DNA of 64,000 nt, taken from assembly GCA_965262745.1 (NCBI GenBank), contig OZ253558.1, positions 2,015,618-2,079,617 on the forward strand, written 5' to 3'. The position numbers and the translations under genes are program-made. The notes beneath the pieces were generated by a model. It was not told the DNA's origin. It saw only the letters and a program-made list of their open reading frames with translations, and made no database searches. This DNA is from Chloroflexota bacterium (GTDB lineage: Bacteria > Chloroflexota > UBA11872). The first letter of the stretch is position 1. Every line of letters begins with the position of its first letter. Below, one piece after another: positions 194 to 15,318 of the stretch.

Positions 194-2449
194 TCAGTCT
201 TCGACCATTCGATCCTCAAGCAGCCCGAGGTTCAGATCGAAATAGTAGTCCAATATATACCGGAAATGATTGACGGAGCTGATAGACGCATATAAACCGT
301 CGCTCGCACCGTCTGGCAAATGGAACGCCGCCACAATACGATGCCGCGCGACCCCCTTTACAATATGACCGTGGTCAGCAGCTATAACAATGACAGGGTC
401 ATTGTTATAGCTGTTCAAGATCCCATCAACCATACTCAACACCAACGAATTTATATAGATAAGTTGCCCAATGAATGCGTTAGGGACGCTGGGGTCATGA
501 CGATCATTAAATGCTAGTTTTGGTTGATCTGGAGTAATATAGTTCCCATGTTGATCGAATGCTGCTGGCAAATGGGGCTTGTTTATGTGTGCAAACACAA
601 ACTTTGCCTGATCCTCCTCAACAGCGCTGGTTAGAAACTCAAACATCTTAAGCGTTCTCTGCGGATAATGAAACCCATACGGAGTGTTTATATCAAACAG
701 CAAATAGTGTCCAGCTATTGGTTTGAGAACTGTCGTTTGAATGAGTTCCCGAACGAAACTCCCCATAAATATCATATCGTGCATCGCCGTATATGGACCT
801 GTGCCTTCTTCCGTGACTTTACTGGCTATAGTGCCTGCCGGTGTAAACGAAATCAAGGTGTCAGCAAGAGGAGATTGGTCAGTGGCAATGAATCCCGAAT
901 CAAGATGTACGTACTTATATCCTAGGCGCTTTAGAATTGCACCGACGGCATGATATTGGGAAATATTGACGAGGACATCTCTCGTTACTGACGTTCGTTG
1001 TCCAAGGCCGTCGAGATACGACATGTTTAGGCTCGATGATATCGACTTGAGTGACGAATCATAGTTGCTGAATGCCTCAGATGCTACGTAGAAACCGCGA
1101 CGCTCGAGCTCACGTAGAAAGCTCGTGTTGTCGTAGTCGCCAAGTGCATCGTGTCGCGAGTACGAATCGAGGATGATGTAGTAGATGTCCGGCTGGTCGC
1201 CGACTACTGTCGGGAGACCCGCTGGCAGCAATCGGTCCACGACATCGTCCACCGCCGCGGTTTGATCCGTTGGCGGGCGGGCAAACGACGCCGCCATTCC
1301 GCCGACAAGGCTTGCGACGGGAAAGGCAAGCAAGACGGCGGCTGTGAGATTGAGGAACTGCGTCGCGCGAGCGGTCGACGCACCGGCTCGTATGGCCATG
1401 ACGGCCGCCGCGGCGCCGAGTACCATCACACCTGCGATGAGCGCTCGTTCGTCCAAATGTCCGTTGAGCACGCGCTCGATGTGGCCATACGCAAAAAAGA
1501 CCACGGTGACGGCGGCCGTGGCCGCGGCCGGCCGGTGCCAATCCTTGAGACCAACTCGCAGGCTAACGACGCTGCCAGTTACCGCGACCAGCGCGATTCC
1601 AAGCGGCACGACGGCCTCGATGGGCGCGAAATGCAGCGAGTTGCTCGTGAGGAAATGCAGGATCGGGATCGCCACGACGGGCCAGGGGTACCAGGGGATC
1701 GCCAGGGCACGCCCAATCATCGTCGGTGAGGCGTGGGCGTCCGCCGCAGCGCCAGACTCGACGCGACGCTGGCCCCAAGTGGCTGGCCAACGAGCCACGC
1801 GACGCCCGGAGGCTCCCGCTCGTTGCAGCGCTGCCGTCGCGCGGGGATGCGCAAGGATTGCCAACACGCTGAATGCGACGGCCAAGCCGAGCCGAAGACG
1901 CTCGGACGGTGCGCCAGCAACCGCAGCACGAAGCCCGCTGCCGGTTTCCAGGTGCGCAAAGGCCAGCGGTCCGCTACCGGAATCCGGGACACCATTCAGC
2001 ATCAGATTGGAGATTCCGGGCTGAGGGCCAGCGAGTCGATAAATCACGTGGGACCGTTCGGATGGGTGCACTTGGAGCTGCAGCAGCAACCGCTGGCCCT
2101 TCGGCACGACATAGCTGGTGAAGATGAGCGTGCGGGGCACGGGGATATACCCCGCCCTGGCGTCGATGTACGTCTGTCGCAGCACCTCGCGGGTGGACGC
2201 GTCAACCAGCGAGGCCCACACAGTCACGTCATCACGCTCGGTCTCGGACGAAACCCAGATCCTGAAGCGGCCCAGCGTCCCGCTCACGGGCCCGAGGTCT
2301 TGCTGCACGCCCCACCCGGGCCAGGCGATGAGCACATCGCCCGCGGGCTCGCCGCTTGAGGCCGACGTAAAGGTGACCTGGGGAAGAAGACTCGCCCACA
2401 GGCCTAGCGCCGCCAGCACAAAGGCCAGCCAGAGCGACCTAGCGAGCAC
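194..2449 (-). CDS. LtaS/sulfatase-family (alkaline-phosphatase superfamily) polyglycerol-phosphate-transferase-like protein, with a ~180-aa N-terminal extracytoplasmic domain ahead of the TM block
   Basis: 751-aa ORF. Central hydrophobic helices are followed by the sulfatase-domain motifs DIYYIILDSYSRHDALGDYDNTSF and VIVIAADHGH. The N-terminal signal-like MLARSLWLAFVLAALGLWA and ~70% protein identity to the 7781..10081 paralog support this start. Confidence 0.8.
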   Translation of the reverse strand: MLARSLWLAFVLAALGLWASLLPQVTFTSASSGEPAGDVLIAWPGWGVQQDLGPVSGTLGRFRIWVSSETERDDVTVWASLVDASTREVLRQTYIDARAGYIPVPRTLIFTSYVVPKGQRLLLQLQVHPSERSHVIYRLAGPQPGISNLMLNGVPDSGSGPLAFAHLETGSGLRAAVAGAPSERLRLGLAVAFSVLAILAHPRATAALQRAGASGRRVARWPATWGQRRVESGAAADAHASPTMIGRALAIPWYPWPVVAIPILHFLTSNSLHFAPIEAVVPLGIALVAVTGSVVSLRVGLKDWHRPAAATAAVTVVFFAYGHIERVLNGHLDERALIAGVMVLGAAAAVMAIRAGASTARATQFLNLTAAVLLAFPVASLVGGMAASFARPPTDQTAAVDDVVDRLLPAGLPTVVGDQPDIYYIILDSYSRHDALGDYDNTSFLRELERRGFYVASEAFSNYDSSLKSISSSLNMSYLDGLGQRTSVTRDVLVNISQYHAVGAILKRLGYKYVHLDSGFIATDQSPLADTLISFTPAGTIASKVTEEGTGPYTAMHDMIFMGSFVRELIQTTVLKPIAGHYLLFDINTPYGFHYPQRTLKMFEFLTSAVEEDQAKFVFAHINKPHLPAAFDQHGNYITPDQPKLAFNDRHDPSVPNAFIGQLIYINSLVLSMVDGILNSYNNDPVIVIAADHGHIVKGVARHRIVAAFHLPDGASDGLYASISSVNHFRYILDYYFDLNLGLLEDRMVED

Positions 2450-2800
2450 AGATCACCAGAAACCGCCGTGAAGCATGGAAAGCTCGATCTGCCGGGGCGG
2501 GGCGGACACGACAGGAGCAAGGCAGACCACCGGAGGTGCTGGTCTGGCACCCCTGGCGAGCGTCGTCCACAGTGGATTGGCAATGCAGGCCATTTGAGTC
2601 CACGACTATAGGGGCGAGCCATGCCCGCGAACGCCCAGCAGCCTCATACGCCGACCTCGAATAGCTCGGTTGACGGCCTGGCCATTGTGGTTCTTGGCCT
2701 TCAGCCCGCGCGGTTGATCTCCGCCCAAGTAGCCGGCCGCAGCTACATCGATCCCGGCAGCGGGAGCTTTGCGATCTTTCTAGATCATCATCGCGGCCAA
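194..2800. repeat. Diverged segmental duplication, copy A (LtaS-like gene plus ~350 bp upstream with small divergent ORF); partner at 7781..10430
   Basis: By-eye nucleotide and protein alignment to the second copy: e.g. ccagccagagcgacctagcgagca is conserved at both gene starts, and cggcagcgggagctttgcgatc is conserved at 2750-2776 and 10385-10411. Homology ends at ~2800 and ~10430. Confidence 0.6.
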
Positions 2801-2866
2801 TTCGGGCGTGAGCGACCCACAGCGTGCAGGTTAGCCCTGAGGCGCCAAGGCGGTCGAGCGCCGTGA
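2621..2866 (+). pseudogene. Decayed copy of the small membrane-protein gene (homolog of 10289..10558); TM helix and downstream coupling lost
   Basis: N-terminal 55 aa (GLAIVVLGLQPARLISAQVAGRSYIDPGSGSFAI) align with the intact copy (GLAILLLGLQAARLISAQLGGRSYIDPGSGSFAI). A 6-nt indel (tttcta at 2777-2782) is followed by unrelated sequence FLDHHRGQFG where the intact copy has the TM segment QIIIAAVLGG. Confidence 0.35.
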
Positions 2867-2961
2867 TGGCCGAAGGAGGTGCCCGACAGTTGCGCGCGTG
2901 GACTAATGCCGCAACCTTAGGTGTATTGCCAGATCTCGGAAACTGGGCCGGCCAGGCAATG

Positions 2962-3038
2962 GCCCGTGTAGCACAATGGGCAGAGGAGCGGTCTTGTAAA
3001 CCGTTAGGTGCTGGGTTCGGGTCCCACGCAGGGCTCCC
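2962..3038 (+). tRNA. Degenerate tRNA-Thr(UGU)-like relic (probable pseudo-tRNA)
   Basis: GCCCGTGTAGCACAATGGGCAGAGGAGCGGTCTTGTAAACCGTTAGGTGCTGGGTTCGGGTCCCACGCAGGGCT aligns along the canonical bacterial tRNA-Thr skeleton. The anticodon stem GCGGT/ACCGT is intact with loop CUUGUAA (anticodon TGT at 2995-2997), and there is a T-arm TGGG-TTCGGGT-CCCA. Only 4 of 7 acceptor pairs and 2 of 4 D-stem pairs form. Confidence 0.35.
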
Positions 3039-5861: not shown

Positions 5862-7248
5862 CCTCCGCACCGGAAAAGCTGGCCGAGCGAATGTCGGACG
5901 CCCGCCGGTTAACTGGCGACGGACGCGACAGTGCGGTTGCCAACAGCAAGGCCGGGCAAAGGACAATTACCGTCAGGGTGATAGCAAGGTCTGTCGCCAG
6001 CACCGGCCAACGCCAGTCGGAGGTGAGAGTTCGCCAGACTGCACGAAGCTTGCTGAGCGTCGGCTCTGGTCTACCGTAGGCCACCAACTCAAGGTTTTGA
6101 TCGGGCCAGGTCAGCTTGCCGTTTACCCAGAGACGGCCCTCCGCGTAGCGGTTCGTCTTCGTCGCGCCAATACGGATATGGGCATCAGGTGCGACATCAG
6201 CGACAAACTGTATCGCGAGGCTCTGACCCGGCGGAACGACGACCGGCTGCTTGAAGTCGAGGGAGACCCAAATCAAGTGATCCCTCCTGGTAGGAACCGT
6301 AAAGCGCCCTTCGCGCAGAATCTCGCGTGACTCGCCGGCCAGAAGGTGCCAGCTGACTACTCCCGAACGACCATTGGGATCATGCATGCCGAGCCGGACA
6401 TCGATCTTCTCGATTGGCACCGTGAGCAGACCCAACTCCTGCATCGCGGATCTCTCGTCTTGGAGATGAACATGAAAAGCACCGACGGAAGAGTGTGCGC
6501 GGGTATCCACGAAAGGGGGTCGGAAGACAGCCATGACCACGAGCCCACCGAGTACGGTCACGGTGGCGATCGATCCAGCGAGCGTCGTGCGCCAGTGGCC
6601 ACCGAACGCGCGAGCTACTCGTGATGAGGCAGGCTCGCCCCGTAGCGCGATGACTGCGCTGAGGACGAGCAGCAGCGTACCGCTGAACTCTAGGGTCTCT
6701 TCCAGCACGACGTCGCGCCCGGGCGCTAGCCTAGCGAACAGGATCGGGGCCGCCACCTCATGCAGCACGGCCAACACCCAGGCCGTGAAGCCAAGCGCAA
6801 ACGGCATGCGCACCGCCTGCCTGCGCAGTCCCTTGCGGACAAAGACCGCCGCCGCAAGCGCGGCTGCCAGGGTCGCCATTCCCGTACTTGCAACCAAGAG
6901 AATGGCTTCGTCAACCGGCACTGCGTCTCTGAACATCAGCCGACTCAAGGCGGCTTGGGCACCGCTGTGTTGGTCCCCGAATTCGCTCCATGCCAGCATT
7001 GCCGCCGTCACGGCCAGGGCGGTCCAGCCACCGATCGTCAGCCATCCAGCAGCCTGCCTTCGACTGTTGAAGGCATTGGTCAGCGCCAAGAGTGCGAGGA
7101 CTGCCAGGGCCGCCCCGGAAACTGCGTTCGCCAAACTGCCTTCAGAATCGGAACTCATATGGCTTGCGATGCCGCTCGGGACGCGCACCTCAGGGAAGAT
7201 CAGCCTCAAAAGTTCTGGGATTACGTAGCCGCCCCACCAGAAGGCCAC
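5833..7248 (-). CDS. Membrane protein with C-terminal copy of the recurrent ~110-aa domain shared with the LtaS-like N-termini
   Basis: 471-aa ORF with N-terminal TM helices. The C-terminal segment VVSWHLLAGESREILREGRF...GQSLAIQFVADV...AHIRI...WVNGKL aligns with VTVWASLVDASTREVLRQTYI...GQRLLLQLQVHPS...HVIYRL...MLNGVP of the LtaS-like proteins. Confidence 0.5.
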   Translation of the reverse strand: MAFWWGGYVIPELLRLIFPEVRVPSGIASHMSSDSEGSLANAVSGAALAVLALLALTNAFNSRRQAAGWLTIGGWTALAVTAAMLAWSEFGDQHSGAQAALSRLMFRDAVPVDEAILLVASTGMATLAAALAAAVFVRKGLRRQAVRMPFALGFTAWVLAVLHEVAAPILFARLAPGRDVVLEETLEFSGTLLLVLSAVIALRGEPASSRVARAFGGHWRTTLAGSIATVTVLGGLVVMAVFRPPFVDTRAHSSVGAFHVHLQDERSAMQELGLLTVPIEKIDVRLGMHDPNGRSGVVSWHLLAGESREILREGRFTVPTRRDHLIWVSLDFKQPVVVPPGQSLAIQFVADVAPDAHIRIGATKTNRYAEGRLWVNGKLTWPDQNLELVAYGRPEPTLSKLRAVWRTLTSDWRWPVLATDLAITLTVIVLCPALLLATALSRPSPVNRRASDIRSASFSGAEATDETSVSH

Positions 7249-7374: not shown

Positions 7375-7460
7375 GTCGAGGTGGTGAAACTGGCAGACAC
7401 GCAGTCCTCAGGAGGCTGTGAGCAACCGCTCGTGCGGGTTCGAATCCCGCCCTCGGCACC
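7375..7460 (+). tRNA. tRNA-Leu(CAG), class II with long variable arm
   Basis: GTCGAGG-TG-GTGAAACTGGCAGACAC-G-CAGTC-CTCAGGA-GGCTG, variable hairpin GAGCAACCGCTC, T-arm GCGGG-TTCGAAT-CCCGC, acceptor 3' CCTCGGC, discriminator A, then CC. Fits the cloverleaf and closely matches the E. coli tRNA-Leu architecture. Anticodon CAG. Confidence 0.9.
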
Positions 7461-7780: not shown

Positions 7781-10081
7781 CTATTCACGGCTTTCTGAGG
7801 TCACCTCGTGAAAATCGAGATTGAATCCGTGGTGTACGAACCTCCGGTCTTTGAGCAAACCCAGGTTAAGGCCGAAATAGAAATCAATGATGGATCGAAA
7901 CTGATTGACGGAGCTGATCGACGGATAAAGAACGCGATCCCCACCATGCGGCAAGTGAAAGGCCGCTAAGATCGCATGCGGCGTCCCCCAGCCATCGAGG
8001 CGACGGCCGTGATCGGCGGTGATCACGATGACGGGGTCGTCGTCATGGATCTGTAGGATCGCATCAACCATTTCTAGAACTCGCGAATTGATATAGATGA
8101 GCTGGCCAATATATGGGCTGGGCACGCTCGGATCGTGATCTTCGCCGAATGCGTCATGGACATTGATACCAGGGACAGCGTTGCCGTGTCGATCGAAGGT
8201 GGCAGGAGGGTGCGGCTTGACGATGTGTGCAAACACAAATTTTGGCCCAGCAACATCGATAGGCTTGGTTAGAAAGTCGAACATCTGAAGGGTCCGCTTT
8301 GGATGCCACCACGCATAGATCGCATCGCTGCCGGGTGCTAAATTATGTCCAAGGAAAGGTCGCAATGCGGTTGTTTGTATAAGCTCGCGTACGAATCTTC
8401 CGGCGAGGATCGATTCGAGCGATCTGGCTGATCTATATCCAGACTTCTCGTCACCTATTAGTACCCCCGATTGGGAAAAATTAACCACGACATCGGCTAG
8501 CGGTGATGCGTCGGTGATCGTGTGTCCAGACGTGAGGTGGACATAGGTGTAGCCGAGTTTCTTCAGGATGGATGCGACGGCATGCTGCTGACCGAGCGGT
8601 ATTACATCCTCGTACCTCGATGGCGTTCTCGGCCCCACGCTGTCGAGATACGACATGTTGAGAAGTGACGCGATTGAATGCTGCGACCACATATAGTTGC
8701 TGGTGGCCTCAGTTGCAATATAGAAACCTCGACGTTCGAGCTCGCGAAGGAAGCTCGTGTTATCGAAATCTACAAGAGCATCGTGCCGAGCATATTCATC
8801 GAGGATGATGTAGTAAATGTCAGGTCGATGATCGCTTGTCGACGGCGGGATCGACGGAAACAGGTGCGTTGTGAGGTCGTCCAGCGCCGCGATCGAGGCT
8901 GACGACGTTCGCCCAGACGAGGCCGCCGCGGCGCTTGCGAGACTAGCTACAGGAAAGGCCAGAAGCACTGCTGCCACGAGGTTGAAGAACGGCGTTTGTC
9001 GCGCAGGCGTGGCATTGGCGCGCACGGCCGCAGCGATAACCACGGCCAGGAAAACGATCGCGGCGGGAAACAGCACACGTTCATCGATCCGCCGGTCGAG
9101 CGCGTTCTCAACGTGGCCATAGGCAAAGACGACCACGGTGATGGCGGTCGTGGCGGCGGCGGATCGGTGCCAGTTCTTGAGGACCAACCAAAAGCCGACG
9201 AAGCTGCCGGTCACGCCGACAAGCGTGACTGCGAGCGGAAATATTGCCTCGCCGGCGGCAAACAGCAGGCGATTACTCGTCAAAAAATGGAGTATGGGAG
9301 CAGCGGCGATCGGCCACGGATACCAGGGGGTCGCGAGCACCCGGCCGAACAGCGTTGGGGATTCGCCGACCTCCCCCTCGGCGTGAGGCCGGACGAGACG
9401 CCGCCTCGACGTCGCTGGCAGCCGAGCGAGGCGCCATCCGGCGGTTCCCATTCGACGCAGCCCTGGCATGACGCGAGGATGCGCCAGGATCGACAGCACG
9501 CTGAACATAACGGCTAGGGCGAACCGGAGACTCCCGGATGGATCACCGAGCCATGCGGCGCGCAGCCCGCTGCCGGTTTCCAGGTGCGCGAATGCCAGCG
9601 GCCCCGCGCCGGAATCCGGGACGCCGTTCAGCATCACGTTGGCGAACCCCGGCTCAGGGGCGGCGAGTCGATAGATGACCGTGTACCGTTCGGGCAGTTG
9701 CACAAGAAGCTGCAACAGCAACCGCTGACCCGCTGGCACGACATAACTGGGAAACGTGAGGGTGCGCGCCACGGGGATATAGCTCGGCGTGGCCTCGATG
9801 AAGGTCTGGCGCAGCACCTCGCGAGTGGAGGCGTCCACCAACGAGGCCTGCACTGTCACGTCGTGTCCAGCAGGCGCGGATGAAAGCCAGATCTGAAAGC
9901 GCCCGACCGTTCCGTTCAGGTGTCCGAGATCTTGCTGCACCCCCCACCCGGGCCAGGCGACCAGCACATCACCCCCGGGCTCGCCGCTTGAGGCCGACGT
10001 ATACGTGACCTGGGGAACGAGACTCGCCCACAGGCCCAGCGCCACTAGTGCGAGAGCCAGCCAGAGCGACCTAGCGAGCAT
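7781..10081 (-). CDS. LtaS/sulfatase-family protein, paralog of 194..2449, same N-terminal domain + TM + sulfatase architecture
   Basis: 766-aa ORF with DIYYIILDEYARHDALVDFDNTSF and VIVITADHG motifs. N-terminus MLARSLWLALALVALGLWA is conserved with the paralog. Confidence 0.8.
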   Translation of the reverse strand: MLARSLWLALALVALGLWASLVPQVTYTSASSGEPGGDVLVAWPGWGVQQDLGHLNGTVGRFQIWLSSAPAGHDVTVQASLVDASTREVLRQTFIEATPSYIPVARTLTFPSYVVPAGQRLLLQLLVQLPERYTVIYRLAAPEPGFANVMLNGVPDSGAGPLAFAHLETGSGLRAAWLGDPSGSLRFALAVMFSVLSILAHPRVMPGLRRMGTAGWRLARLPATSRRRLVRPHAEGEVGESPTLFGRVLATPWYPWPIAAAPILHFLTSNRLLFAAGEAIFPLAVTLVGVTGSFVGFWLVLKNWHRSAAATTAITVVVFAYGHVENALDRRIDERVLFPAAIVFLAVVIAAAVRANATPARQTPFFNLVAAVLLAFPVASLASAAAASSGRTSSASIAALDDLTTHLFPSIPPSTSDHRPDIYYIILDEYARHDALVDFDNTSFLRELERRGFYIATEATSNYMWSQHSIASLLNMSYLDSVGPRTPSRYEDVIPLGQQHAVASILKKLGYTYVHLTSGHTITDASPLADVVVNFSQSGVLIGDEKSGYRSARSLESILAGRFVRELIQTTALRPFLGHNLAPGSDAIYAWWHPKRTLQMFDFLTKPIDVAGPKFVFAHIVKPHPPATFDRHGNAVPGINVHDAFGEDHDPSVPSPYIGQLIYINSRVLEMVDAILQIHDDDPVIVITADHGRRLDGWGTPHAILAAFHLPHGGDRVLYPSISSVNQFRSIIDFYFGLNLGLLKDRRFVHHGFNLDFHEVTSESRE

Positions 10082-10430
10082 CAGTCACCAGCAAGGGCCG
10101 GAAGCCATGGAAACCTCGATGTGGCAGTGGTGGGGCGCGCCGGACCGGATTACAGGGCCGGCGACCGGAAGTGCTGGTCTTGCGCCCGTGGGGAACGTCG
10201 TCCACAGTGTGTCGGCGATGAAGGCCATTTGAGCCCACGATGATAGCGGCGAGCCACGAACGTGACCGGTGAGGAGGCTCGAGCGCCGATGCCGAATAGA
10301 TCAGGTGGAGGCTTGGCCATTTTGCTTCTTGGTCTTCAGGCTGCGCGGCTGATCTCCGCCCAGTTGGGCGGCCGCAGCTATATCGATCCCGGCAGCGGGA
10401 GCTTTGCGATCCAGATCATCATTGCGGCTG
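7781..10430. repeat. Diverged segmental duplication, copy B (partner of 194..2800)
   Basis: See copy A. The gene, its 5' region and the start of the divergent small ORF are conserved. Confidence 0.6.
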
Positions 10431-10558
10431 TACTGGGCGGGCTGCTCTCGGCGCGGCTCTGGTTCCGGTACGTGTTGGGACGGATCATCGGGCTGGTGCG
10501 CCGGTCAACCCCCGCGGAGAATCCCTCGGCTGAGGAGGCCAACCGCGAGGACGGATGA
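10289..10558 (+). CDS. Small (≈89 aa) two-helix membrane protein, intact copy of the duplicated divergent small ORF, translationally coupled to the next gene
   Basis: Start chosen at the ATG conserved with copy A (MP.N...), with GAGGAGG 11 nt upstream. The ORF-track version starts at GTG 10262. Hydrophobic segments are GLAILLLGLQAARLI and AIQIIIAAVLGGLLSARLWF. The stop overlaps the next start (ATGA at 10555-10558). Confidence 0.5.
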   Translation: MPNRSGGGLAILLLGLQAARLISAQLGGRSYIDPGSGSFAIQIIIAAVLGGLLSARLWFRYVLGRIIGLVRRSTPAENPSAEEANREDG

Positions 10559-11946
10559 TCGCCGACCCTGACGCGCGCCTGCCGAGTTCGTTCCGCGACC
10601 CGGCGGGCTTCGTCTTCCAGCGCGACGGCACGATCTTCCGCCAAGTCAACCGGTCCTACGAGGCAACCTTTGCCACCCTGATGGATTCGGGGCTTTACGC
10701 CCGTCTCGTCGAGGACGGCCTCCTCATCCCTCACGAGACCGTCGAGTTGGGCCTCGCCCCCGCGCCCGATGCCGCGGCCGTCATCCGGCCCGCACAACTC
10801 AAGTTCGTTTCCTATCCCTTCGAGTGGTCGTTCGCGCAGCTCAAGGCCGCCGCCCTGGCAACCTTGCATGTGCAGCGGCGGGCGTTGGACTACGGCCTGT
10901 CGCTCAAGGACGCCAGCGCACGCAACATCCAACTGCATGAGGGACGTCCCAGGCTCATCGACACCTTGTCGTTCGAGCGTTACGAGCCGGGCTTTCCGTG
11001 GGTGGGCTATCGCCAGTTTTGCCAGCACTTCCTGGCGCCGCTGGCGGTCATGGCCTACACCGATGTCCGCTTGGGCACGCTACTGCAGAGCCATTTGGAC
11101 GGCGTCCCGCTCGACCTCGCGTCGCGGCTGCTCCCCTGGCGCTCGCGCCTCCGGCCCGGTCTGCTGATGCATCTGCACCTCCACAGCCGCGCTCAGGCGC
11201 GTGCCGCCACATCGACCCGGAAGCGTGCCGACCTGGCCGGCCGCATGAGCCGGCGACGACTTGACGCCTTGCTGGAGAGCCTTGAATCGGCGATAGGCCG
11301 GATTGCCTGGAACGCAGACCGCACGCCATGGGCCGGCTACGGCGACCAGACGAGCTATACGAGCAGTGCTCTGGCCGACAAGAAGCGATTGGTGGCCGAG
11401 CACCTATCCATGGTCTCGCCCGAATCCGTGTGGGACATCGGCGGCAACACGGGCGACTTCAGCCGGATCGCCGCGGCGGGCAGCATCCCGGTGGTCTCGA
11501 TCGACAGCGATCCGGGAGCGATCGATCTGAACTATCGCCGCATGGCGGCAGACGGCGAGCGAAACCTCTTCCCCATCGTGGCCGACGTCACCAGCCCCAG
11601 TCCCGCGCTGGGATGGGACAACGATGAGGTCGCCTCGCTCACGTCGCGGGGGCCGGCCGGGCTGGTGATGGCGCTGGCCCTGATCCATCATCTCGCGATT
11701 GGCAACAACACCGGATTCGACCGCCTGGCGCAGTTCTTTGCGGCGCGCGCACCAATGCTCCTCATCGAGTTCGTCCCGCCCGACGATCCAATGGTCGTGC
11801 GTCTGCTGGCGATGCGGAATCACGCGTTTCCCTGGTACACGCAGCGCGAATTCGAATCGGTGTTCAGCCAGTACTTCCACATCCAGCGGTCGGACGCGAT
11901 CACGGACTCGAACCGCCGGCTCTATCTGATGACGACGGGCAGCTAG
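10555..11946 (+). CDS. Two-domain protein with a C-terminal class-I SAM-dependent methyltransferase fold and an uncharacterised ~260-aa N-terminal domain
   Basis: 463-aa ORF. Motif I of a Rossmann MTase is VWDIGGNTGDFSRIAA, followed by an acidic loop (SIDSDPGAID) and motif-II-like FPIVADVTSP. The N-terminal half has no motif I recognise. Confidence 0.65.
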   Translation: MIADPDARLPSSFRDPAGFVFQRDGTIFRQVNRSYEATFATLMDSGLYARLVEDGLLIPHETVELGLAPAPDAAAVIRPAQLKFVSYPFEWSFAQLKAAALATLHVQRRALDYGLSLKDASARNIQLHEGRPRLIDTLSFERYEPGFPWVGYRQFCQHFLAPLAVMAYTDVRLGTLLQSHLDGVPLDLASRLLPWRSRLRPGLLMHLHLHSRAQARAATSTRKRADLAGRMSRRRLDALLESLESAIGRIAWNADRTPWAGYGDQTSYTSSALADKKRLVAEHLSMVSPESVWDIGGNTGDFSRIAAAGSIPVVSIDSDPGAIDLNYRRMAADGERNLFPIVADVTSPSPALGWDNDEVASLTSRGPAGLVMALALIHHLAIGNNTGFDRLAQFFAARAPMLLIEFVPPDDPMVVRLLAMRNHAFPWYTQREFESVFSQYFHIQRSDAITDSNRRLYLMTTGS

Positions 11947-11950
11947 ACCG

Positions 11951-13291
11951 GTGGCGCGACGATGTGGCGACTCACCGGCCCCCGCAACCCACCTCGGGAA
12001 CCACGAGCGCTGGGCGGTGGTGGCAATCATTGTGTTCGCGACACTCAGCGCGCTGTTGTGGGCGCTCATACGGATTCCGGACGGCGGCGGACCCGACGAG
12101 GCCAGCCACCTGGCCCTGATCGAACGCATTCGCGATGCGGGCGGAATCCCGCAATTCCAGGGGTTTGAGCCCAGTAAGTTCGTTGGGAAACCGGGGCGAG
12201 TCATCAACGCCTTTGAGCTGACGCCAAATATTTCGGCGCTGGCGCTGGCGGGTTTCGCCAGCGCAGCCCACCTAAGCGACCCGCTAGCGACGCTGCTGCT
12301 CGGCAGACTCTACGCCGTCAGCCTCTTTCCAGTGACGCTGCTGCTCGCCTACCTCACACTGCGCCTTCTGATTCCCACGCGGCCCGTGGAACGCGTGTGG
12401 GCGCTCACGGCCCTCGCTACCCTTCCCCAACTCATGCTGGTCCACAGCTACGTGACCAACGACACCCCAAGCATCGCGGCCGCGTCACTGGCGATCTTTC
12501 TGACCGTGCGCGGATGGACGAACGGGTTTCGACGGCGGGACGCAGCGCTGCTGGGCGTCGCGTTGGGTTTGGTTGGCCTGCACAAAGCGAACGGGCTGGT
12601 CATTGTCCCCATGGCGGGCGCCCTGATCGCCTGGCGGCTGCGGCACGACCTGCCCCAGTTAGCCCGAACTCTCGGCACTGTCGCCGTTCCGGCGCTGGCC
12701 GTGGCCGGTTGGTGGTATGTGCGCATGCTCGTCGTCTACGGCGACCCGATAGGTACGGGGACCACCAAGGCAGCGATCGAGGCCGTGGGAACGGCGGTTG
12801 CAACGCCCCATGACCAGGGACTGAGTCCGTGGGAATACGCCCATGTATCGGGATGGGTCGAGGGCGCGTTCCGGTCGTTTTGGGCCGGCTACGGCGTGCG
12901 CAAGATGACCATGCCAGACGCGGCCTACCTGGCCATGCTGGCGCTGCTGGTCGTCGGCGCGGGCGGGCTGGCCGCCAGCGCCTGGCGTACGCGCGGGCGC
13001 GCTGCAAATGATGGCGCGGTTTGGATAGCGTTCGGGCTGGTCGTCACAGGGCTGTGGGGCCTGAATCTCTGGACGAGCTGGACGCTCGACGGCGCCGCCA
13101 TGCATGGGCGATATACGTTTCCCGTGATTGTTCCCTTCGTGGCATTGCTCGCCGCCGGGCTCGGGCGCGCCCTTGCCGTTACGGGCCGTTCCCAATTCAT
13201 GTTGGCGCTGCTGGTCCCGCTCATGGTTGCGGGAAACCTGGCCTATTTCGTCCATGTCGTTATCCCGGACGTGGTGGCGCTTCGTGCTTGA
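11951..13291 (+). CDS. GT-C superfamily membrane glycosyltransferase (PMT/ArnT-like, GT39/83-type) with DE motif in first extracytoplasmic loop
   Basis: 446-aa polytopic ORF. DGGGPDEASHLALIERI lies right after TM1, which is the canonical position of the catalytic DE/DD motif of GT-C lipid-linked-sugar transferases. There are ≥10 further hydrophobic helices. Confidence 0.6.
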   Translation: MARRCGDSPAPATHLGNHERWAVVAIIVFATLSALLWALIRIPDGGGPDEASHLALIERIRDAGGIPQFQGFEPSKFVGKPGRVINAFELTPNISALALAGFASAAHLSDPLATLLLGRLYAVSLFPVTLLLAYLTLRLLIPTRPVERVWALTALATLPQLMLVHSYVTNDTPSIAAASLAIFLTVRGWTNGFRRRDAALLGVALGLVGLHKANGLVIVPMAGALIAWRLRHDLPQLARTLGTVAVPALAVAGWWYVRMLVVYGDPIGTGTTKAAIEAVGTAVATPHDQGLSPWEYAHVSGWVEGAFRSFWAGYGVRKMTMPDAAYLAMLALLVVGAGGLAASAWRTRGRAANDGAVWIAFGLVVTGLWGLNLWTSWTLDGAAMHGRYTFPVIVPFVALLAAGLGRALAVTGRSQFMLALLVPLMVAGNLAYFVHVVIPDVVALRA

Positions 13292-14126
13292 CCGCCTGAG
13301 GCAAGGGCGCGCTGCTCAGCTTGCAGGCGAGGTCTCCGTCATTCTGCTCGCGCTCAGCTGGATCATTTTTCTGCTAGTGCACCCCGTCCACATCCCCGTG
13401 CTATCACCGTCCCAGGAAGTTGAGCCCTACAACGCGCAATCCCTGACCGGCGTGCAGGGACAGACGTTTGTGGCACCGACCAGTAGGCTGAGCCGGATCG
13501 ACCTGGAACTCGACACGCGCATTCCGCCCGGCGAGTGGGTGCACGTGACATTTGAGCTCGCTCGCGGAGTACAGCCCCGTACGACGCTTGCCTCAGCGAT
13601 CGCGATCTTCGACCGTTCCCGCAAAGGCTGGCCCGTCCGCCTGTACCTCGATCCCGTCCTGACCGCGGCTGGCGACCGCCTTTATTTGCGTCTTGAGTCG
13701 GTCGTGAGCTCGCCCCGCGCGGAGGTGTTCTACCGCTACAGCCGCCAAGATTTTTACCCGCAGGGCGCCTATCTCGACCTGGATAAGTTGCGCCCGACCG
13801 ATCTGGACCTGCTCTTGACCGTCTATCGCGCTCCGCGCGTTCCCAAGCCGCTGGCGTGGATTGAAGCGTTCACCGCTCGCGCAGGTCATGCGGCCCAACT
13901 GGCCGCCCTGGCACCGGCGTGGGTGGTGACGCTGCTGAGCGTGCTCGCGCTCGCGTCCGTCCTCATCGCATTCACCGCTGGCGCCCACCTGCTGATTCGT
14001 GTCTCGACGTGGCGTTCAACAGCGCTTACGACCCCGGCGATCATTGCGCTGCTTTGCGCAGCCGCGCTTGCGCTGCTGGCTTGGGGCGAGATTCCAATCG
14101 GAAAGCTAGTTCTGGACCTCACCTGA
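13284..14126 (+). CDS. Membrane-anchored protein carrying the recurrent ~110-aa extracytoplasmic domain (N-terminal TM, domain, C-terminal TM pair)
   Basis: In-frame GTG at 13284 overlaps the upstream stop. The M-start at 13128 in the ORF track would overlap the GT-C by 160 nt. The domain segment QTFVAPTSRLSRIDLELD...VHVTFELARGVQPRTTLASAIAIFD...GDRLYLRLESVVSSPRAEVFYRY aligns with the LtaS-like N-terminal domain. Confidence 0.45.
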   Translation: MLDRLRQGRAAQLAGEVSVILLALSWIIFLLVHPVHIPVLSPSQEVEPYNAQSLTGVQGQTFVAPTSRLSRIDLELDTRIPPGEWVHVTFELARGVQPRTTLASAIAIFDRSRKGWPVRLYLDPVLTAAGDRLYLRLESVVSSPRAEVFYRYSRQDFYPQGAYLDLDKLRPTDLDLLLTVYRAPRVPKPLAWIEAFTARAGHAAQLAALAPAWVVTLLSVLALASVLIAFTAGAHLLIRVSTWRSTALTTPAIIALLCAAALALLAWGEIPIGKLVLDLT

Positions 14127-14148
14127 CCAGACGCGCCCGCTCCGATCC

Positions 14149-15318
14149 CTAGACCGGCGGGGAGAACGTGTAGCGGTAGACGGCGCCTTGCCAGAAGTGG
14201 TCCGCGACCTCGCCGATGCGGGTGAGGTAGATCTCGATATCCAGCGTCTCGCGGTCTTCGAGCACATTGAAGTTCGAGATCTGGAGTTCGGCAGGCTCGT
14301 TCGTGGCGCGGTCATCGACGAGGAGCAGGCTGTCCCGCCGAACGGCCAGGCGATCCTCGTCGATTTCGGCGATGTAGAGCGGATACCGAGGGCTGTTGCC
14401 GTCGGGAGGCTCCGGGGTGATGTTGGCCAGCCAGTACAGCGTGCCGTTGCGCGCCGAGCGGATGAACCGATGCAGGCTGGACGGGGAGTAAAAGCGTGAG
14501 CCGTCGTCGTAGCGAAGCTCTTGCAGGGGCGAGATGCAGCGGCCGCCGTCGTCGGAGACGCTGAACCACTTGCGCCCCGGAGTGGTAGCGGTATTGCTGC
14601 CGCGGACGATGGTGAGCAGGCGGCCATCGCGCAGCACGGCCACCTCCGGCTCGAGCACCCCGCGTGAGGAGCGCTCCGCACCGAGGTATTCGATGTTGGA
14701 TGCTTGCCAGACGCCCGCTGCGGGGTCGCGCCGCATGACGACCAGACCGCCGCTGGTGTGCGGGCTCTCGGGGGAACCGGCGTGCGCCACCAGCGGCAGA
14801 TATGCCGTGCCGTCCGGCGCGAAGGTGATCGACTGTCCGAGATAGGCGCGGTTGGTCGAGCAGAAGTCGGGATTGAAGGGGTTATCGGGATCGAAGTCCG
14901 GTCCCTGCTCGTACCTGAGCAGCGTTTCGGGTCCGTCGTCAACCGTGGCGAAGACGTGGTCGTTGTAGGGGTGCCGGTGCGAGCCCCAGTGGAAGGTATA
15001 AACCGGCATGCCGGGCCAGATGCGTCGCATCCGCATCTGGTAGCGGCGGGTGTGCGGGCGGTCGATAAAGATGCCGGCCGGGTAGCTGACGATGCCGCCG
15101 CCATCAAGCTGCTGCACGATGCCGGAGAGCTCTTGGCGCTCAGTCCAAGTGCGGCCGTTGTCGGGTGAGGTTCGCTCCTCGAATCCGTGGTACTCGTCGG
15201 AAGCGCCGCTGGTCTGAAAGCGTTCGAGGCGCGTGAGCCCGGCGTCGATGTAGCAGACCGACATCCACTGGGCGCGGTCCTCGCCTGCAGCGGGCAGGTA
15301 GCGTTCGCGGTGCAGCAT
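14149..15318 (-). CDS. BNR/Asp-box repeat protein, sialidase (GH33)-like beta-propeller
   Basis: 389-aa ORF with Asp-box motifs SPDNGRTWT and SVSDDGGRCIS and a beta-rich composition. The overlapping 14106..15488 ORF in another frame is R/P/S-rich and was rejected. Confidence 0.7.
   Translation of the reverse strand: MLHRERYLPAAGEDRAQWMSVCYIDAGLTRLERFQTSGASDEYHGFEERTSPDNGRTWTERQELSGIVQQLDGGGIVSYPAGIFIDRPHTRRYQMRMRRIWPGMPVYTFHWGSHRHPYNDHVFATVDDGPETLLRYEQGPDFDPDNPFNPDFCSTNRAYLGQSITFAPDGTAYLPLVAHAGSPESPHTSGGLVVMRRDPAAGVWQASNIEYLGAERSSRGVLEPEVAVLRDGRLLTIVRGSNTATTPGRKWFSVSDDGGRCISPLQELRYDDGSRFYSPSSLHRFIRSARNGTLYWLANITPEPPDGNSPRYPLYIAEIDEDRLAVRRDSLLLVDDRATNEPAELQISNFNVLEDRETLDIEIYLTRIGEVADHFWQGAVYRYTFSPPV

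Follow-up and report, generated by a model that had tools for sequence, protein, structure and literature searches.

A Chloroflexota locus that probably joins a conserved NoeA unit to an independently conserved GT-C glycosyltransferase pair

What unites four genes that are packed as tightly as those of a single operon? In the window analysed here, a 64-kb stretch of a Chloroflexota genome, genes for a microprotein, a NoeA-like methyltransferase, a GT-C glycosyltransferase and a 280-aa membrane protein follow one another on the same strand (Table 1), divergent from the sulfatase-like gene of an LtaS-like protein, paralog B. Their order, divergence and close coupling stand as given in a preliminary description: the first junction is an ATGA overlap (10555-10558), the NoeA-like stop and GT-C start codons are separated by 4 nt (ACCG), and the last two genes overlap by 8 nt (GTGCTTGA). 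As all four products have conserved homologues, all four are real genes, and their spacing suggests that they may be co-translated. The microprotein has 89 residues when read from the ATG, which is preceded by GGAGG 12 nt 5', and 98 if the upstream GTG is the start. Promoters are presumed, from position, to lie in the divergent intergenic region, where no sigma-70-type consensus was found.

Table 1. Features of the locus and of the duplicated segment (window coordinates)
Feature	Position	Strand	Basis or remark
NoeB-like paralog A, 751 aa, 60% identical to paralog B	194..2449	-	in segmental duplication
Frameshifted remnant of a second microprotein gene	2669..2866	+	six-frame motif scan and blastn
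NoeB-like membrane enzyme of alkaline-phosphatase/LtaS/EptA fold, 766 aa (LtaS-like paralog B)	7781..10081	-	homology, neighbourhood counts
Divergent intergenic region, NoeB-like gene/microprotein gene	10082..10288		207-nt spacer; position only
Microprotein gene	10289..10558	+	ATG start, alternative GTG at 10262
NoeA-like gene, 463 aa	10555..11946	+	TAG stop at 11944-11946
Predicted atypical protein-kinase-like domain, NoeA-like aa 1-262	10555..11340	+	AF2 model, Foldseek, conserved residues
Class I SAM-dependent methyltransferase domain, NoeA-like aa 263-463	11341..11946	+	AF2 model, Pfam
Left direct repeat, 14 nt, CTAGACCGGTGGCG	11943..11956		cassette edge
GT39/PMT-type GT-C glycosyltransferase gene, 446 aa, cassette gene 1	11951..13291	+	GTG start; Pfam, DE motif, hydropathy
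280-aa membrane protein gene	13284..14126	+	GTG start; synteny with GT-C, hydropathy
Right direct repeat, CTAGACCGGCGGGG, 12/14 identical to left	14149..14162		cassette edge

What is the 463-aa product of the second gene? It aligns end to end with Sinorhizobium NoeA (35% identity over 459 aa, E=8e-78), and a tblastn search against plasmids matched the annotated noeA over residues 7-457 (E=6e-61). Its C-terminal half is indeed the Rossmann methyltransferase recognised earlier: motif I reads WDxGxNxG (residues 293-300), the acidic residues D317 and D319 are present, and the AF2 model of the full-length protein (pLDDT 89.6, pTM 0.90) matches DnrK, WbdD-MTase, Hen1 and ChlM with E about 1e-8. Pfam contributes a weak match to Methyltransf_23, and source annotations name homologues 'class I SAM-dependent methyltransferase'. 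The N-terminal 260 residues, previously called a novel domain, have no sequence match in Pfam, NCBIfam or PDB, and no sequence profile connects them with known kinases. When the AF2 model of this domain (pLDDT 91.2) was compared with the PDB by Foldseek, the top 50 matches were all kinase folds, at E about 1e-4 and modest TM-scores of 0.34-0.42. As in the core of a kinase, the model places a catalytic Asp/Asn/Asp set behind a long helix with a short strand and about a pair of short strands. These residues, D119, N124 and D136, are the equivalents of D166, N171 and D184 of PKA; the D-to-N and N-to-D distances are 5 and 12 residues (PKA: 5 and 13); R29 falls at the position of K72, an Arg replacing the ATP-binding Lys, and homologues of the protein conserve no alpha-C Glu. 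All four residues are kept in the pairwise alignment with NoeA and are invariant among 47 homologues, the invariance of D119, N124 and D136 extending over archaea and upwards of 20 phyla whose sequences are about 50% identical overall. We confidently predict a protein-kinase-like fold for this region, and not the known dimerisation domain that had been envisaged as the alternative.

With an atypical kinase-like domain as its N-terminal half, the protein thus belongs to the NoeA family; it is a new member of a widespread group, NoeA/Lani_1194, that has already been described. A bioinformatic study of 2022 reported this kinase-methyltransferase family with the same Arg for K72 and missing ion-pair Glu, with 94% of homologues fused to the methyltransferase, and with Lani_1193 (65%) and Lani_1195/NoeB, an AP-fold protein (38%), as the two neighbours that are conserved (Sci Rep, PMC9758233). 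NoeA homologues occur in archaea too (L022, L055). The Arg-for-Lys exchange and the missing alpha-C Glu could signify non-kinase chemistry or a pseudokinase.

Both neighbours have their equivalents in the window. The microprotein has no Pfam family above threshold. Its N-terminus, optional, is hydrophobic and resembles a signal peptide; the invariant motif YIDPGSGS, a single TM helix and a tail that is first basic and then acidic make up the rest. Small ORFs with Y[IL]DPG[ST]GS end about -6 to +35 nt from the methyltransferase start at 80 of 91 loci, and such a microprotein lies beside the NoeA-like gene at 56 of 63 fully flanked loci, in many phyla including archaea; the motif is also found on S. 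medicae pSymA and a Singulisphaera plasmid. The microprotein is a conserved partner of NoeA-like enzymes, the counterpart of Lani_1193 and of the unnamed 71-aa ORF between nodL and noeA.

The second neighbour is paralog B, which had been seen as a mere neighbour but completes the conserved NoeA system as its third member. It matches S. medicae NoeB (E=3e-9) and, at 29% identity (E=8e-39), a Singulisphaera 'LTA synthase family protein' encoded 3' of a NoeA homologue. NoeB-like homologues lie within 6 kb of the NoeA-like gene at 38 of the 63 fully flanked loci, 28 of them on the same strand and immediately 3'. Paralog B conserves D428, S/T466, H619, H624 and D690, reaches a Pfam Sulfatase score of 21.7, under the threshold of 25, and is extended at its N-terminus by a lineage-specific stretch of about 280 aa. 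Part of this arrangement has been duplicated, window positions 989-2797 matching 8621-10428 at 73% (blastn). Divergent from paralog A, the second microprotein gene survives as a remnant that reads ...RSYIDPGSGSFAI and then runs out of frame, with no second NoeA gene after it. The 'recurrent domain' that paralog B was thought to share with the 280-aa protein is unproven: BLASTP gave E values of 0.11 to 1.9, and hhalign did not match the two families to each other directly; what each of them matches, and weakly (P 2e-4 and 5e-5, probability 21-39%), is the C-terminal half of a 471-aa protein at 5833-7248.

Do the remaining two genes belong to the same system? The GT-C, with about 9-10 TM helices by hydropathy, scores 23.5 bits against Pfam PMT (cut-off 22.7), and its homologues carry PF02366/PF13231 and are named 'glycosyltransferase family 39'. 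The DE motif on which it had been classified holds: D49-E50, situated in the first loop, does not vary among 20 homologues, and the preceding G47-P48 and the nearby H53 are likewise invariant. Members of this small, largely Chloroflexota subfamily (51 matches) are always followed by a membrane protein of 265-298 aa. Here this is the 280-aa protein, which has no Pfam family and whose beta-rich extracytoplasmic domain (about 150 aa) lies between one TM helix at the N-terminus and two to three at the C-terminus; homologues of 35-68% identity lie directly 3' of the GT-C in L010, L011, L015, L095 and L097. The 280-aa protein is an obligate partner of the GT-C subfamily. In L095 and L097 the pair occurs without NoeA. 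Conversely, the four closest genomes (L001, L013, L002, L014) lack it, as does every NoeA locus below 70% identity, the GT-C being present at only 5 of 89 NoeA loci. The two genes are also bounded physically. The left repeat includes the methyltransferase stop and GT-C start codons, the right one overlaps the stop codon of a convergent BNR-like gene, and the 9-mer CTAGACCGG occurs in the 64-kb window only twice, once per cassette edge. The closest genome, L001, has one repeat copy and no cassette, and blastn against it yields a clean indel with limits at 11967-14154. The GT-C and 280-aa genes form a separate, variable two-gene module, here a 2.2-kb cassette flanked by a 14-nt direct repeat. 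The four genes are not the single functional unit that had been proposed; what is deeply conserved is the set of microprotein, NoeA-like enzyme and NoeB-like enzyme. Their order recurs in the related Chloroflexota L010 and L012, and in L011 and L015 with intervening DNA; as the cassette thus adjoins the noeA-like gene in four or five related genomes, in two very tightly, there may be a lineage-specific functional link.

The explanation we favour, and regard as reasonably probable, is that the locus joins a conserved NoeA unit, whose mechanism we infer, to an independently conserved GT-C pair. By homology, the first module comprises the YIDPGSGS microprotein, the NoeA-family kinase-like/methyltransferase protein and the divergent NoeB-like enzyme, a trio that Sinorhizobium carries as (orf71)-noeA-noeB in its nod-box n5 operon and Legionella as Lani_1193-1195. 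Soluble NoeA would sit at the cytoplasmic face of the membrane, tethered by the charged tail that the microprotein exposes to the cytoplasm, and would modify a single substrate, membrane-bound or lipid-linked, in two steps, phosphorylation with ATP and then methylation with SAM, in parallel to the unrelated kinase-methyltransferase WbdD on a lipid-linked glycan. The polytopic NoeB-like enzyme, its AP-fold domain facing outward, would transfer or trim the phospho-group on the outer face. The roles of the microprotein as tether and of NoeB as acting on the NoeA product are suggested by co-occurrence and predicted topology. The second module, by homology and synteny, is a separate surface-glycosylation pair in which the 280-aa membrane protein accompanies the GT39-type GT-C, and its tight spacing to the noeA-like gene would reflect a lineage-specific arrangement in a variable envelope island rather than a common pathway.

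Should the four genes nevertheless be read as one pathway, the NoeA-like protein would methylate a sugar donor linked to lipid, or the product of that donor, which the GT-C would then transfer to a polymer made by the LtaS-like enzyme, with the 280-aa protein as an accessory. The very tight spacing and the repeated gene order speak for this, as do the glycosyltransferase, epimerase and NDP-sugar genes moderately frequent near NoeA homologues. We consider it distinctly unlikely, given how rare the GT-C is at NoeA loci, its absence at the exact same site in the four closest genomes, the conservation of the pair without NoeA and a kinase-like domain left unexplained. Donor methylation, as suggested in the preliminary description, finds no comparative support because the GT-C pair is often absent and also occurs without NoeA.

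Two other readings concern the NoeA-like protein itself. It could be a methyltransferase only, N- or O-methylating the microprotein or another envelope protein, with its N-terminal domain as pseudokinase or substrate-binding scaffold. A conserved xPSPxxGW segment after beta-4 points this way, resembling, if loosely, the (D/N)PP(Y/F/W) motif of N-methyltransferases, as do JGI labels of some homologues as PrmA-like and the exchanged Lys and missing Glu (also PMC9758233). However, the invariance of D119, N124 and D136 is hard to explain without phosphoryl transfer or nucleotide and Mg binding, and we hold this reading to be unlikely. Quite unlikely, in our estimate, is that NoeA is a small-molecule or lipid head-group kinase and methyltransferase that regenerates the NoeB donor, in one version by re-phosphorylating diacylglycerol from an EptA/LtaS-type transferase and methylating the phosphate or head group. 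Diacylglycerol is released by EptA/LtaS-type enzymes, and dgkA is a frequent companion of eptA/mcr-3 genes. The NoeB-like protein retains EptA/LtaS-type catalytic residues, an HHpred match to EptA is given for a NoeB-type protein (supplement of PMC9758233), and the microprotein would put NoeA at the membrane. Against this stand the archaeal members of the family, whose hosts have ether lipids, and the absence of NoeB from about 40% of neighbourhoods.

How does the locus compare with known systems? The GT-C resembles GT39/PMT_2/ArnT-like enzymes in its multiple TM helices, its invariant DE in the first extracytoplasmic loop and a Pfam PMT score just over the gathering cut-off, but its constant membrane partner is not known from characterised GT39 systems. 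With LtaS, EptA (MCR-1) and YejM, the NoeB-like enzyme shares a polytopic membrane region towards the N-terminus and, outside the cytoplasm, a sulfatase-fold domain that conserves the metal-ligand Asp, a nucleophile position filled by Ser/Thr, and His/Asp residues; unlike these, it has an extra N-terminal beta-rich domain, and its genetic tie is with NoeA, not with genes for lipid A or teichoic acids. [quoted passage not shown] Like the NoeA-like protein it carries a class I methyltransferase and a kinase fold of eukaryotic-like type on a single polypeptide, and the two methyltransferases superpose (4azs, E=3e-8); its cytoplasmic membrane-associated site and envelope glycan substrate have proposed counterparts here. 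WbdD, however, has the reverse order, methyltransferase-kinase-coiled coil, the coiled coil being absent from the NoeA-like protein; no sequence homology between the two is detectable, the locus lacks an ABC-transporter O-antigen context, and WbdD and Lani_1194/NoeA have been handled as separate families (PMC9758233). With nodL-noeA-noeB of Sinorhizobium meliloti/medicae the locus shares full-length homology, the kinase-like-then-methyltransferase order, the Arg-for-Lys and D/N/D signature, an overlapping upstream microprotein (YLDPGTGS there) and the AP-fold NoeB-like partner. In contrast to Sinorhizobium, the host is a member of the Chloroflexota and has no nod genes, the NoeB-like gene lies upstream in divergent orientation instead of following downstream, encodes about 280 extra N-terminal residues and is duplicated, and a GT39 GT-C cassette is attached to the 3' end of the operon. 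Rhizobial NoeA is a much more distant relative of the NoeA-like protein than are the members of a large clade of uncultured anaerobes, which share about 50% identity with it.

What kind of protein stands at the centre of this locus? The annotated noeA gene of pSymA plasmids aligns with residues 7-457 of the 463-aa protein (tblastn, 34.6% identity, E=6e-61), and NoeA of S. medicae is 35% identical to it over 459 residues (BLASTP, E=8e-78). Homologues number at least 7989 in a word-indexed search; they are full length at 455-470 aa and are named in their sources 'class I SAM-dependent methyltransferase' or 'PrmA'. Sinorhizobium NoeA is a member of the Lani_1194 family, defined in section 8 of 'Pan-kinome of Legionella', in which 94% of about 2000 homologues carry a fused class I methyltransferase, a small hypothetical protein, Lani_1193, is a neighbour in 65%, and Lani_1195/NoeB, with an alkaline-phosphatase fold and an HHpred match to EptA, adjoins in 38% (PMC9758233). 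Papers citing Ardourel et al. (1995) describe nodL-noeA-noeB as host-range genes required to nodulate particular Medicago species. It is very probable, both parts of the statement taken jointly, that the 463-aa protein belongs to the NoeA/Lani_1194 family and that the locus has a two-module architecture.

The family reaches far. At least 584 species genomes hold a NoeA match, and the N-domain alone matches 3827 clusters at 50% identity. Proteins about 50% identical to that of the window come from Chloroflexota, Actinomycetota, Omnitrophota, Acidobacteriota, Planctomycetota, Clostridia, Desulfobacterota and Gammaproteobacteria, from a CPR lineage, Chlamydiota, Ignavibacteria and Krumholzibacteria, and from the archaeal Altiarchaeota and Methanobacteriota. 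For comparison we sampled 80 NoeA loci from species genomes and 12 through exact-protein look-ups; loci from other genomes are designated L001-L097, L001 being from the closest genome. In bacteria of more than 20 phyla and archaea of two lineages (L013-L092; L022, L055), mostly uncultured, identity to the window protein stays at about 48-54%, which is unusually even for such a phylogenetic spread and suggests, as far as sequence comparison goes, strong constraint together with horizontal transfer. A preprint of 2026 describing new kinase-like families mentions neither NoeA nor methyltransferase fusions.

The domain calls of the preliminary description were mostly right, except that its 'novel' N-terminal domain is the published atypical kinase domain of NoeA/Lani_1194. 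These 260 residues match nothing in Pfam or NCBIfam, and their fold was identified by structure comparison only: Pfam returned nothing relevant for the N-domain on 22 family members, a 22-sequence profile found no match in the PDB at E<=10, and the whole protein obtained a single chance match there by phmmer (E=0.66). Searched against the PDB with Foldseek, the AlphaFold2 model of the domain (pLDDT 91.2) has kinase folds only among its top 50 hits (PknG, PAK1, MYT1, RNase L, AceK), at E about 1e-4 and probability 0.99-1.0, with modest TM scores of 0.34-0.42. An alignment of 47 homologues shows as invariant SFRDPxG (12-18), R29, D119, N124 and D136, the last three within LKDASAYNIQ...LIDTLSFE; R29, D119, N124 and D136 are all retained in the pairwise alignment with S. 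medicae NoeA. R29 takes the position of K72 in PKA, while the equivalents of D166, N171 and D184 are retained as D119, N124 and D136, spaced by 5 and 12 residues as against 5 and 13 in PKA. A long helix and a short strand precede D119/N124 and two short strands precede D136, a motif geometry that, in the model, fits a kinase core. Fold and active-site signature are, so far as modelled, consistent with those of an ATP-using phosphotransferase, and a dimerisation domain, which had been considered for the N-terminus, is rejected on account of the kinase fold and the invariant D/N/D. What had seemed unassignable is a known atypical kinase fold that is invisible to sequence profiles.

The best phmmer matches to the N-domain are nearly all 450-470 aa long. 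The full-length AlphaFold2 model (pLDDT 89.6, pTM 0.90) indicates confident packing of the two domains and matches class I methyltransferases, among them the methyltransferase domain of WbdD, at E about 1e-8 (Foldseek); in Pfam, Methyltransf_23 reaches E=0.099. The SAM-binding Rossmann domain is intact.

All-against-all clustering of the ORFs around NoeA loci returned, besides out-of-frame and antisense ORFs inside the methyltransferase gene, two widely recurrent neighbour families. The more faithful partner is a microprotein, of 89 aa in the window, for which the published family description lists a hypothetical protein only (PMC9758233). A small ORF ends about -6 to +35 nt from the methyltransferase start in 80 of 91 loci, and the microprotein is present in 56 of the 63 loci having at least 2.5 kb on both flanks. 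It carries the invariant Y[IL]DPG[ST]GS, followed by a TM helix, a basic stretch and an acidic tail. On pSymA this microprotein is an unnamed ORF of 71 aa that lies between nodL and noeA (MPIIMSVLGFLILSIVPAHAYLDPGTGSML...), and another copy stands upstream of the NoeA homologue on a Singulisphaera plasmid. A full-text literature search for the DPGTGS motif returned no relevant paper. Many microproteins (L007, L024, L027-L029, L047, L093 and others) have a signal-peptide-like N-terminus with AxA directly before YLDPGTGS, so that cleavage would make the motif the mature N-terminus; some (L045, L066, L082) begin at M-YLDPGTGS.

NoeB-like proteins make up the second recurrent family; a typical member has about 520 aa, 4-5 TM helices and a domain of the sulfatase fold. 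Of the 63 loci with flanks of that length, 38 contain one, and 28 genes of the family lie directly downstream of NoeA on the same strand. The 766-aa protein of the window belongs to this cluster. It matches S. medicae NoeB (E=3e-9) and, at 29% identity (E=8e-39), the product annotated 'LTA synthase family protein' whose gene comes after the NoeA homologue of Singulisphaera, and 50 of its homologues conserve D428, Ser/Thr 466, H619, H624 and D690, position 466 being that of the nucleophile in LtaS/EptA-type enzymes. Because of this homology and these residues, the protein previously described as an LtaS-like paralog is, by its sequence, NoeB-like and the third member of a conserved trio. In the clade of the window (8 loci), and only there, the NoeB-like gene is divergent and upstream, with an added N-terminal extension of about 280 aa.

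Around these genes we made some further observations. A conserved membrane protein of 332-334 aa, without a Pfam family, lies directly downstream of NoeA on the same strand in 13 loci, some of which have no NoeB-like gene after NoeA; it could be an alternative NoeA partner. In the window, a segmental duplication took in the NoeB-like gene (as paralog A), the divergent promoter region and the start of the microprotein gene. Paralog A has no second NoeA copy beside it, only the frameshifted microprotein remnant, and what follows this remnant is a tRNA-Thr, not a NoeA gene. Between the two NoeB-like paralogs lie two polytopic membrane proteins, of 931 and 471 aa, and a tRNA-Leu, which give the first 14 kb of the window the look of a variable envelope island.

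Features of the locus (positions in the window unless a comparison locus is named)
Feature	Position	Strand	Remarks
NoeB-like paralog A	194-2449	-	
Segmental duplication	989-2797 and 8621-10428		73% identity over 1.8 kb
Microprotein remnant	about 2669-2866	+	reads ...RSYIDPGSGSFAI, then frameshifts
tRNA-Thr	2961-3037		
931-aa membrane protein	3066-5861	+	at least 10 hydrophobic segments; no Pfam match
471-aa membrane protein	5833-7248	-	about 6 TM helices and a beta-rich domain; no Pfam match
tRNA-Leu	7375-7460		
766-aa NoeB-like gene	7781-10081	-	sulfatase-like
Microprotein ORF	10289-10558	+	ATG with GGAGG before it; other possible start GTG 10262
NoeA-like ORF	10555-11946	+	
GT-C ORF	11951-13291	+	start GTG
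280-aa protein ORF	13284-14126	+	start GTG
Direct repeat, left copy (14 nt)	11943-11956		CTAGACCGGTGGCG; holds methyltransferase stop codon and GT-C start codon
Direct repeat, right copy	14149-14162		CTAGACCGGCGGGG; overlaps stop codon of convergent BNR-like gene
389-aa BNR-like gene	14149-15318	-	3' end abuts cassette
Collinear with L001	8643-11966 and 14155-17179		
Segment lacking in L001	11967-14154		exactly the GT-C and 280-aa genes
IS110-family and DDE transposases	L001 4077-4529, 14665-15612; L002 11432-12403		flank the syntenic region
332-334-aa membrane protein, examples	L025 9499-10497; L092 9468-10472; L008 9438-10436		about 10 other Anaerolineae loci

Do the four genes on the forward strand act as one pathway, as first proposed? 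The ORFs and their spacings are real, as described: the microprotein ORF overlaps the NoeA-like start by 4 nt (ATGA), a 4-nt spacer runs from TAG to the GTG of the GT-C gene, the last two genes overlap by 8 nt, and a spacer of 207 nt separates the block from the divergent sulfatase-like gene. Scanned for sigma-70 promoters and terminators, the stretch 9900-14400 yielded nothing beyond what is expected from shuffled sequence, and the interior of the block is without intrinsic terminator or sigma-70 consensus. Since the junctions are this tight and such signals are absent within the block, co-transcription and translational coupling are plausible. Pfam and NCBIfam find marginal matches only, PMT on the GT-C (23.5 bits against a cut-off of 22.7) and Sulfatase on the 766-aa protein (21.7 bits, below its cut-off of 25). 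The GT-C, with about 9-10 hydrophobic segments, has homologues named GT39 and falls in a small GT39/PMT_2 subfamily of only 51 matches; its G47-P48-D49-E50 is invariant, D49-E50 being the acidic DE motif of the first extracytoplasmic loop. A domain said to recur in the 280-aa and sulfatase-like proteins would have to link the beta-rich domain of the former with the N-terminal extension of the 766-aa protein. BLASTP of the 280-aa protein against the N-terminal region of the sulfatase-like proteins is not significant (E=1.9) and against the 471-aa protein gives E=0.11; hhalign finds no direct match between the 280-aa and 766-aa families, though each weakly matches the 471-aa protein in its C-terminal half, at a probability of 21-39%.

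Comparison of genomes gives the single-pathway model no support. Against L001, whose NoeA is 94% identical, blastn reveals a clean indel that covers the GT-C and 280-aa genes; the region in which the operon lies is 84% identical, the right flank 94-95%. The pair is likewise missing from L013, L002 and L014, whose right-hand BNR-like flank is that of the window, and from L003, whose flanks match those of L010 and L011. It lies downstream of NoeA in L010, in L012 (whose contig breaks off within the GT-C gene), in L011 (with one gene between) and in L015 (3.5 kb away), and is lacking from all NoeA loci below 70% identity. In L095 and L097, with no NoeA nearby, GT-C homologues at 44-45% identity stand directly before genes homologous to that of the 280-aa protein, at 35-39% identity (E=6e-43 and 3e-56). 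As the pair is absent from relatives and present without NoeA elsewhere, the four-gene operon joins two modules of two genes each, conserved independently of one another, and the proposed action of the methyltransferase with the GT-C depends on the part of the locus that is conserved least. Direct repeats identical at 12 of 14 positions bound the cassette; their exact 9-mer core, CTAGACCGG, is found nowhere else in the 64-kb window; L001 has one copy, and its methyltransferase reads through to end 7 residues longer. Such a boundary fits insertion or deletion by short-homology recombination. A mobile-element origin is unsupported: there is no transposase or integrase inside 11957-14148, and the direct repeat is short. 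In the closest relatives the syntenic region has transposases on its flanks, and in the window it has none there, which fits a rearrangement-prone neighbourhood. The convergent gene beyond the cassette, 81-94% identical in the four closest genomes, encodes weak BNR/sialidase-like repeats (BNR_2, 24.4 bits, below cut-off).

What, then, might the trio do? NoeA has no TM helix and no signal peptide and is hence probably cytoplasmic; the positive-inside rule would put the basic tail of the microprotein in the cytoplasm and its motif at or beyond the outer face; and the NoeB-like catalytic domain would, by analogy with LtaS and EptA, be extracytoplasmic. In the most economical, though tentative, view, NoeA would phosphorylate and methylate, inside the cell, a substrate that is membrane-bound or lipid-linked; the microprotein would tether NoeA at the membrane, and the NoeB-like protein would deal with the phospho-group outside. 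A less probable rival, a pseudokinase joined to a methyltransferase, would dispense with the phosphorylation: helix 33-53 holds no conserved Glu in the 47 homologues and NoeA, and the Lani_1194 family has Arg at the K72 position and lacks the ion-pair Glu, while keeping the equivalents of D166, N171 and D184 (PMC9758233). Other less probable rivals are NoeA as a lipid head-group or donor-recycling enzyme, and the single pathway first proposed for the four genes. The explanation as a whole, with NoeA and its partners as one module and the GT-C pair as another, we regard as somewhat better than even.

A bolder extension, which we think improbable, sees in microprotein, NoeA and NoeB a hitherto unrecognised trans-membrane relay. 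On the inner face, NoeA would use ATP and SAM to make a methyl-phospho or similarly modified phospho head group on a membrane lipid or on a lipid-linked carrier; both faces would be coupled by the microprotein, its cytoplasmic tail binding NoeA and its invariant extracytoplasmic YLDPGTGS docking to NoeB or being modified by it; and NoeB would hand the head group on to a secreted signal or a glycan of the cell surface, the acceptor in the Chloroflexota lineage of the window being the glycan of the adjacent GT39 GT-C. If true, this would account for the cassette having docked repeatedly beside noeA and open a first chemical way into the question of NoeA/NoeB function, which is 30 years old.

Among characterized proteins, a WbdD-type O-antigen chain terminator was considered and rejected. 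WbdD is ordered methyltransferase, kinase and C-terminal coiled coil, whereas the NoeA-like protein has the reverse order and ends after the methyltransferase; the WbdD entries 4azs and 4ax8 in the PDB are unmatched by it (phmmer), the generic methyltransferase fold being all that is shared; and no ABC-transporter gene occurs among the Pfam-scanned neighbours at 194-22238 or in the recurrent neighbour clusters. In function WbdD is the closest analogy, from a separate family. Two by-products of our analysis are the most useful: the microprotein motif, which is strikingly conserved, and the reach of the family, shown here to extend far past rhizobia and Legionella into many phyla and archaea; in one Chloroflexota lineage a variable envelope island houses the NoeA system, with a swappable GT-C cassette beside it. 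Family breadth, microprotein and cassette context could steer experiments on NoeA/NoeB function. NoeA and NoeB entered the genetic literature in 1995 as host-range nodulation genes and were described in 2022 as a widespread pair of a kinase-like/methyltransferase and an alkaline-phosphatase-fold protein; this locus, with little new in kind, is a further example of their system.
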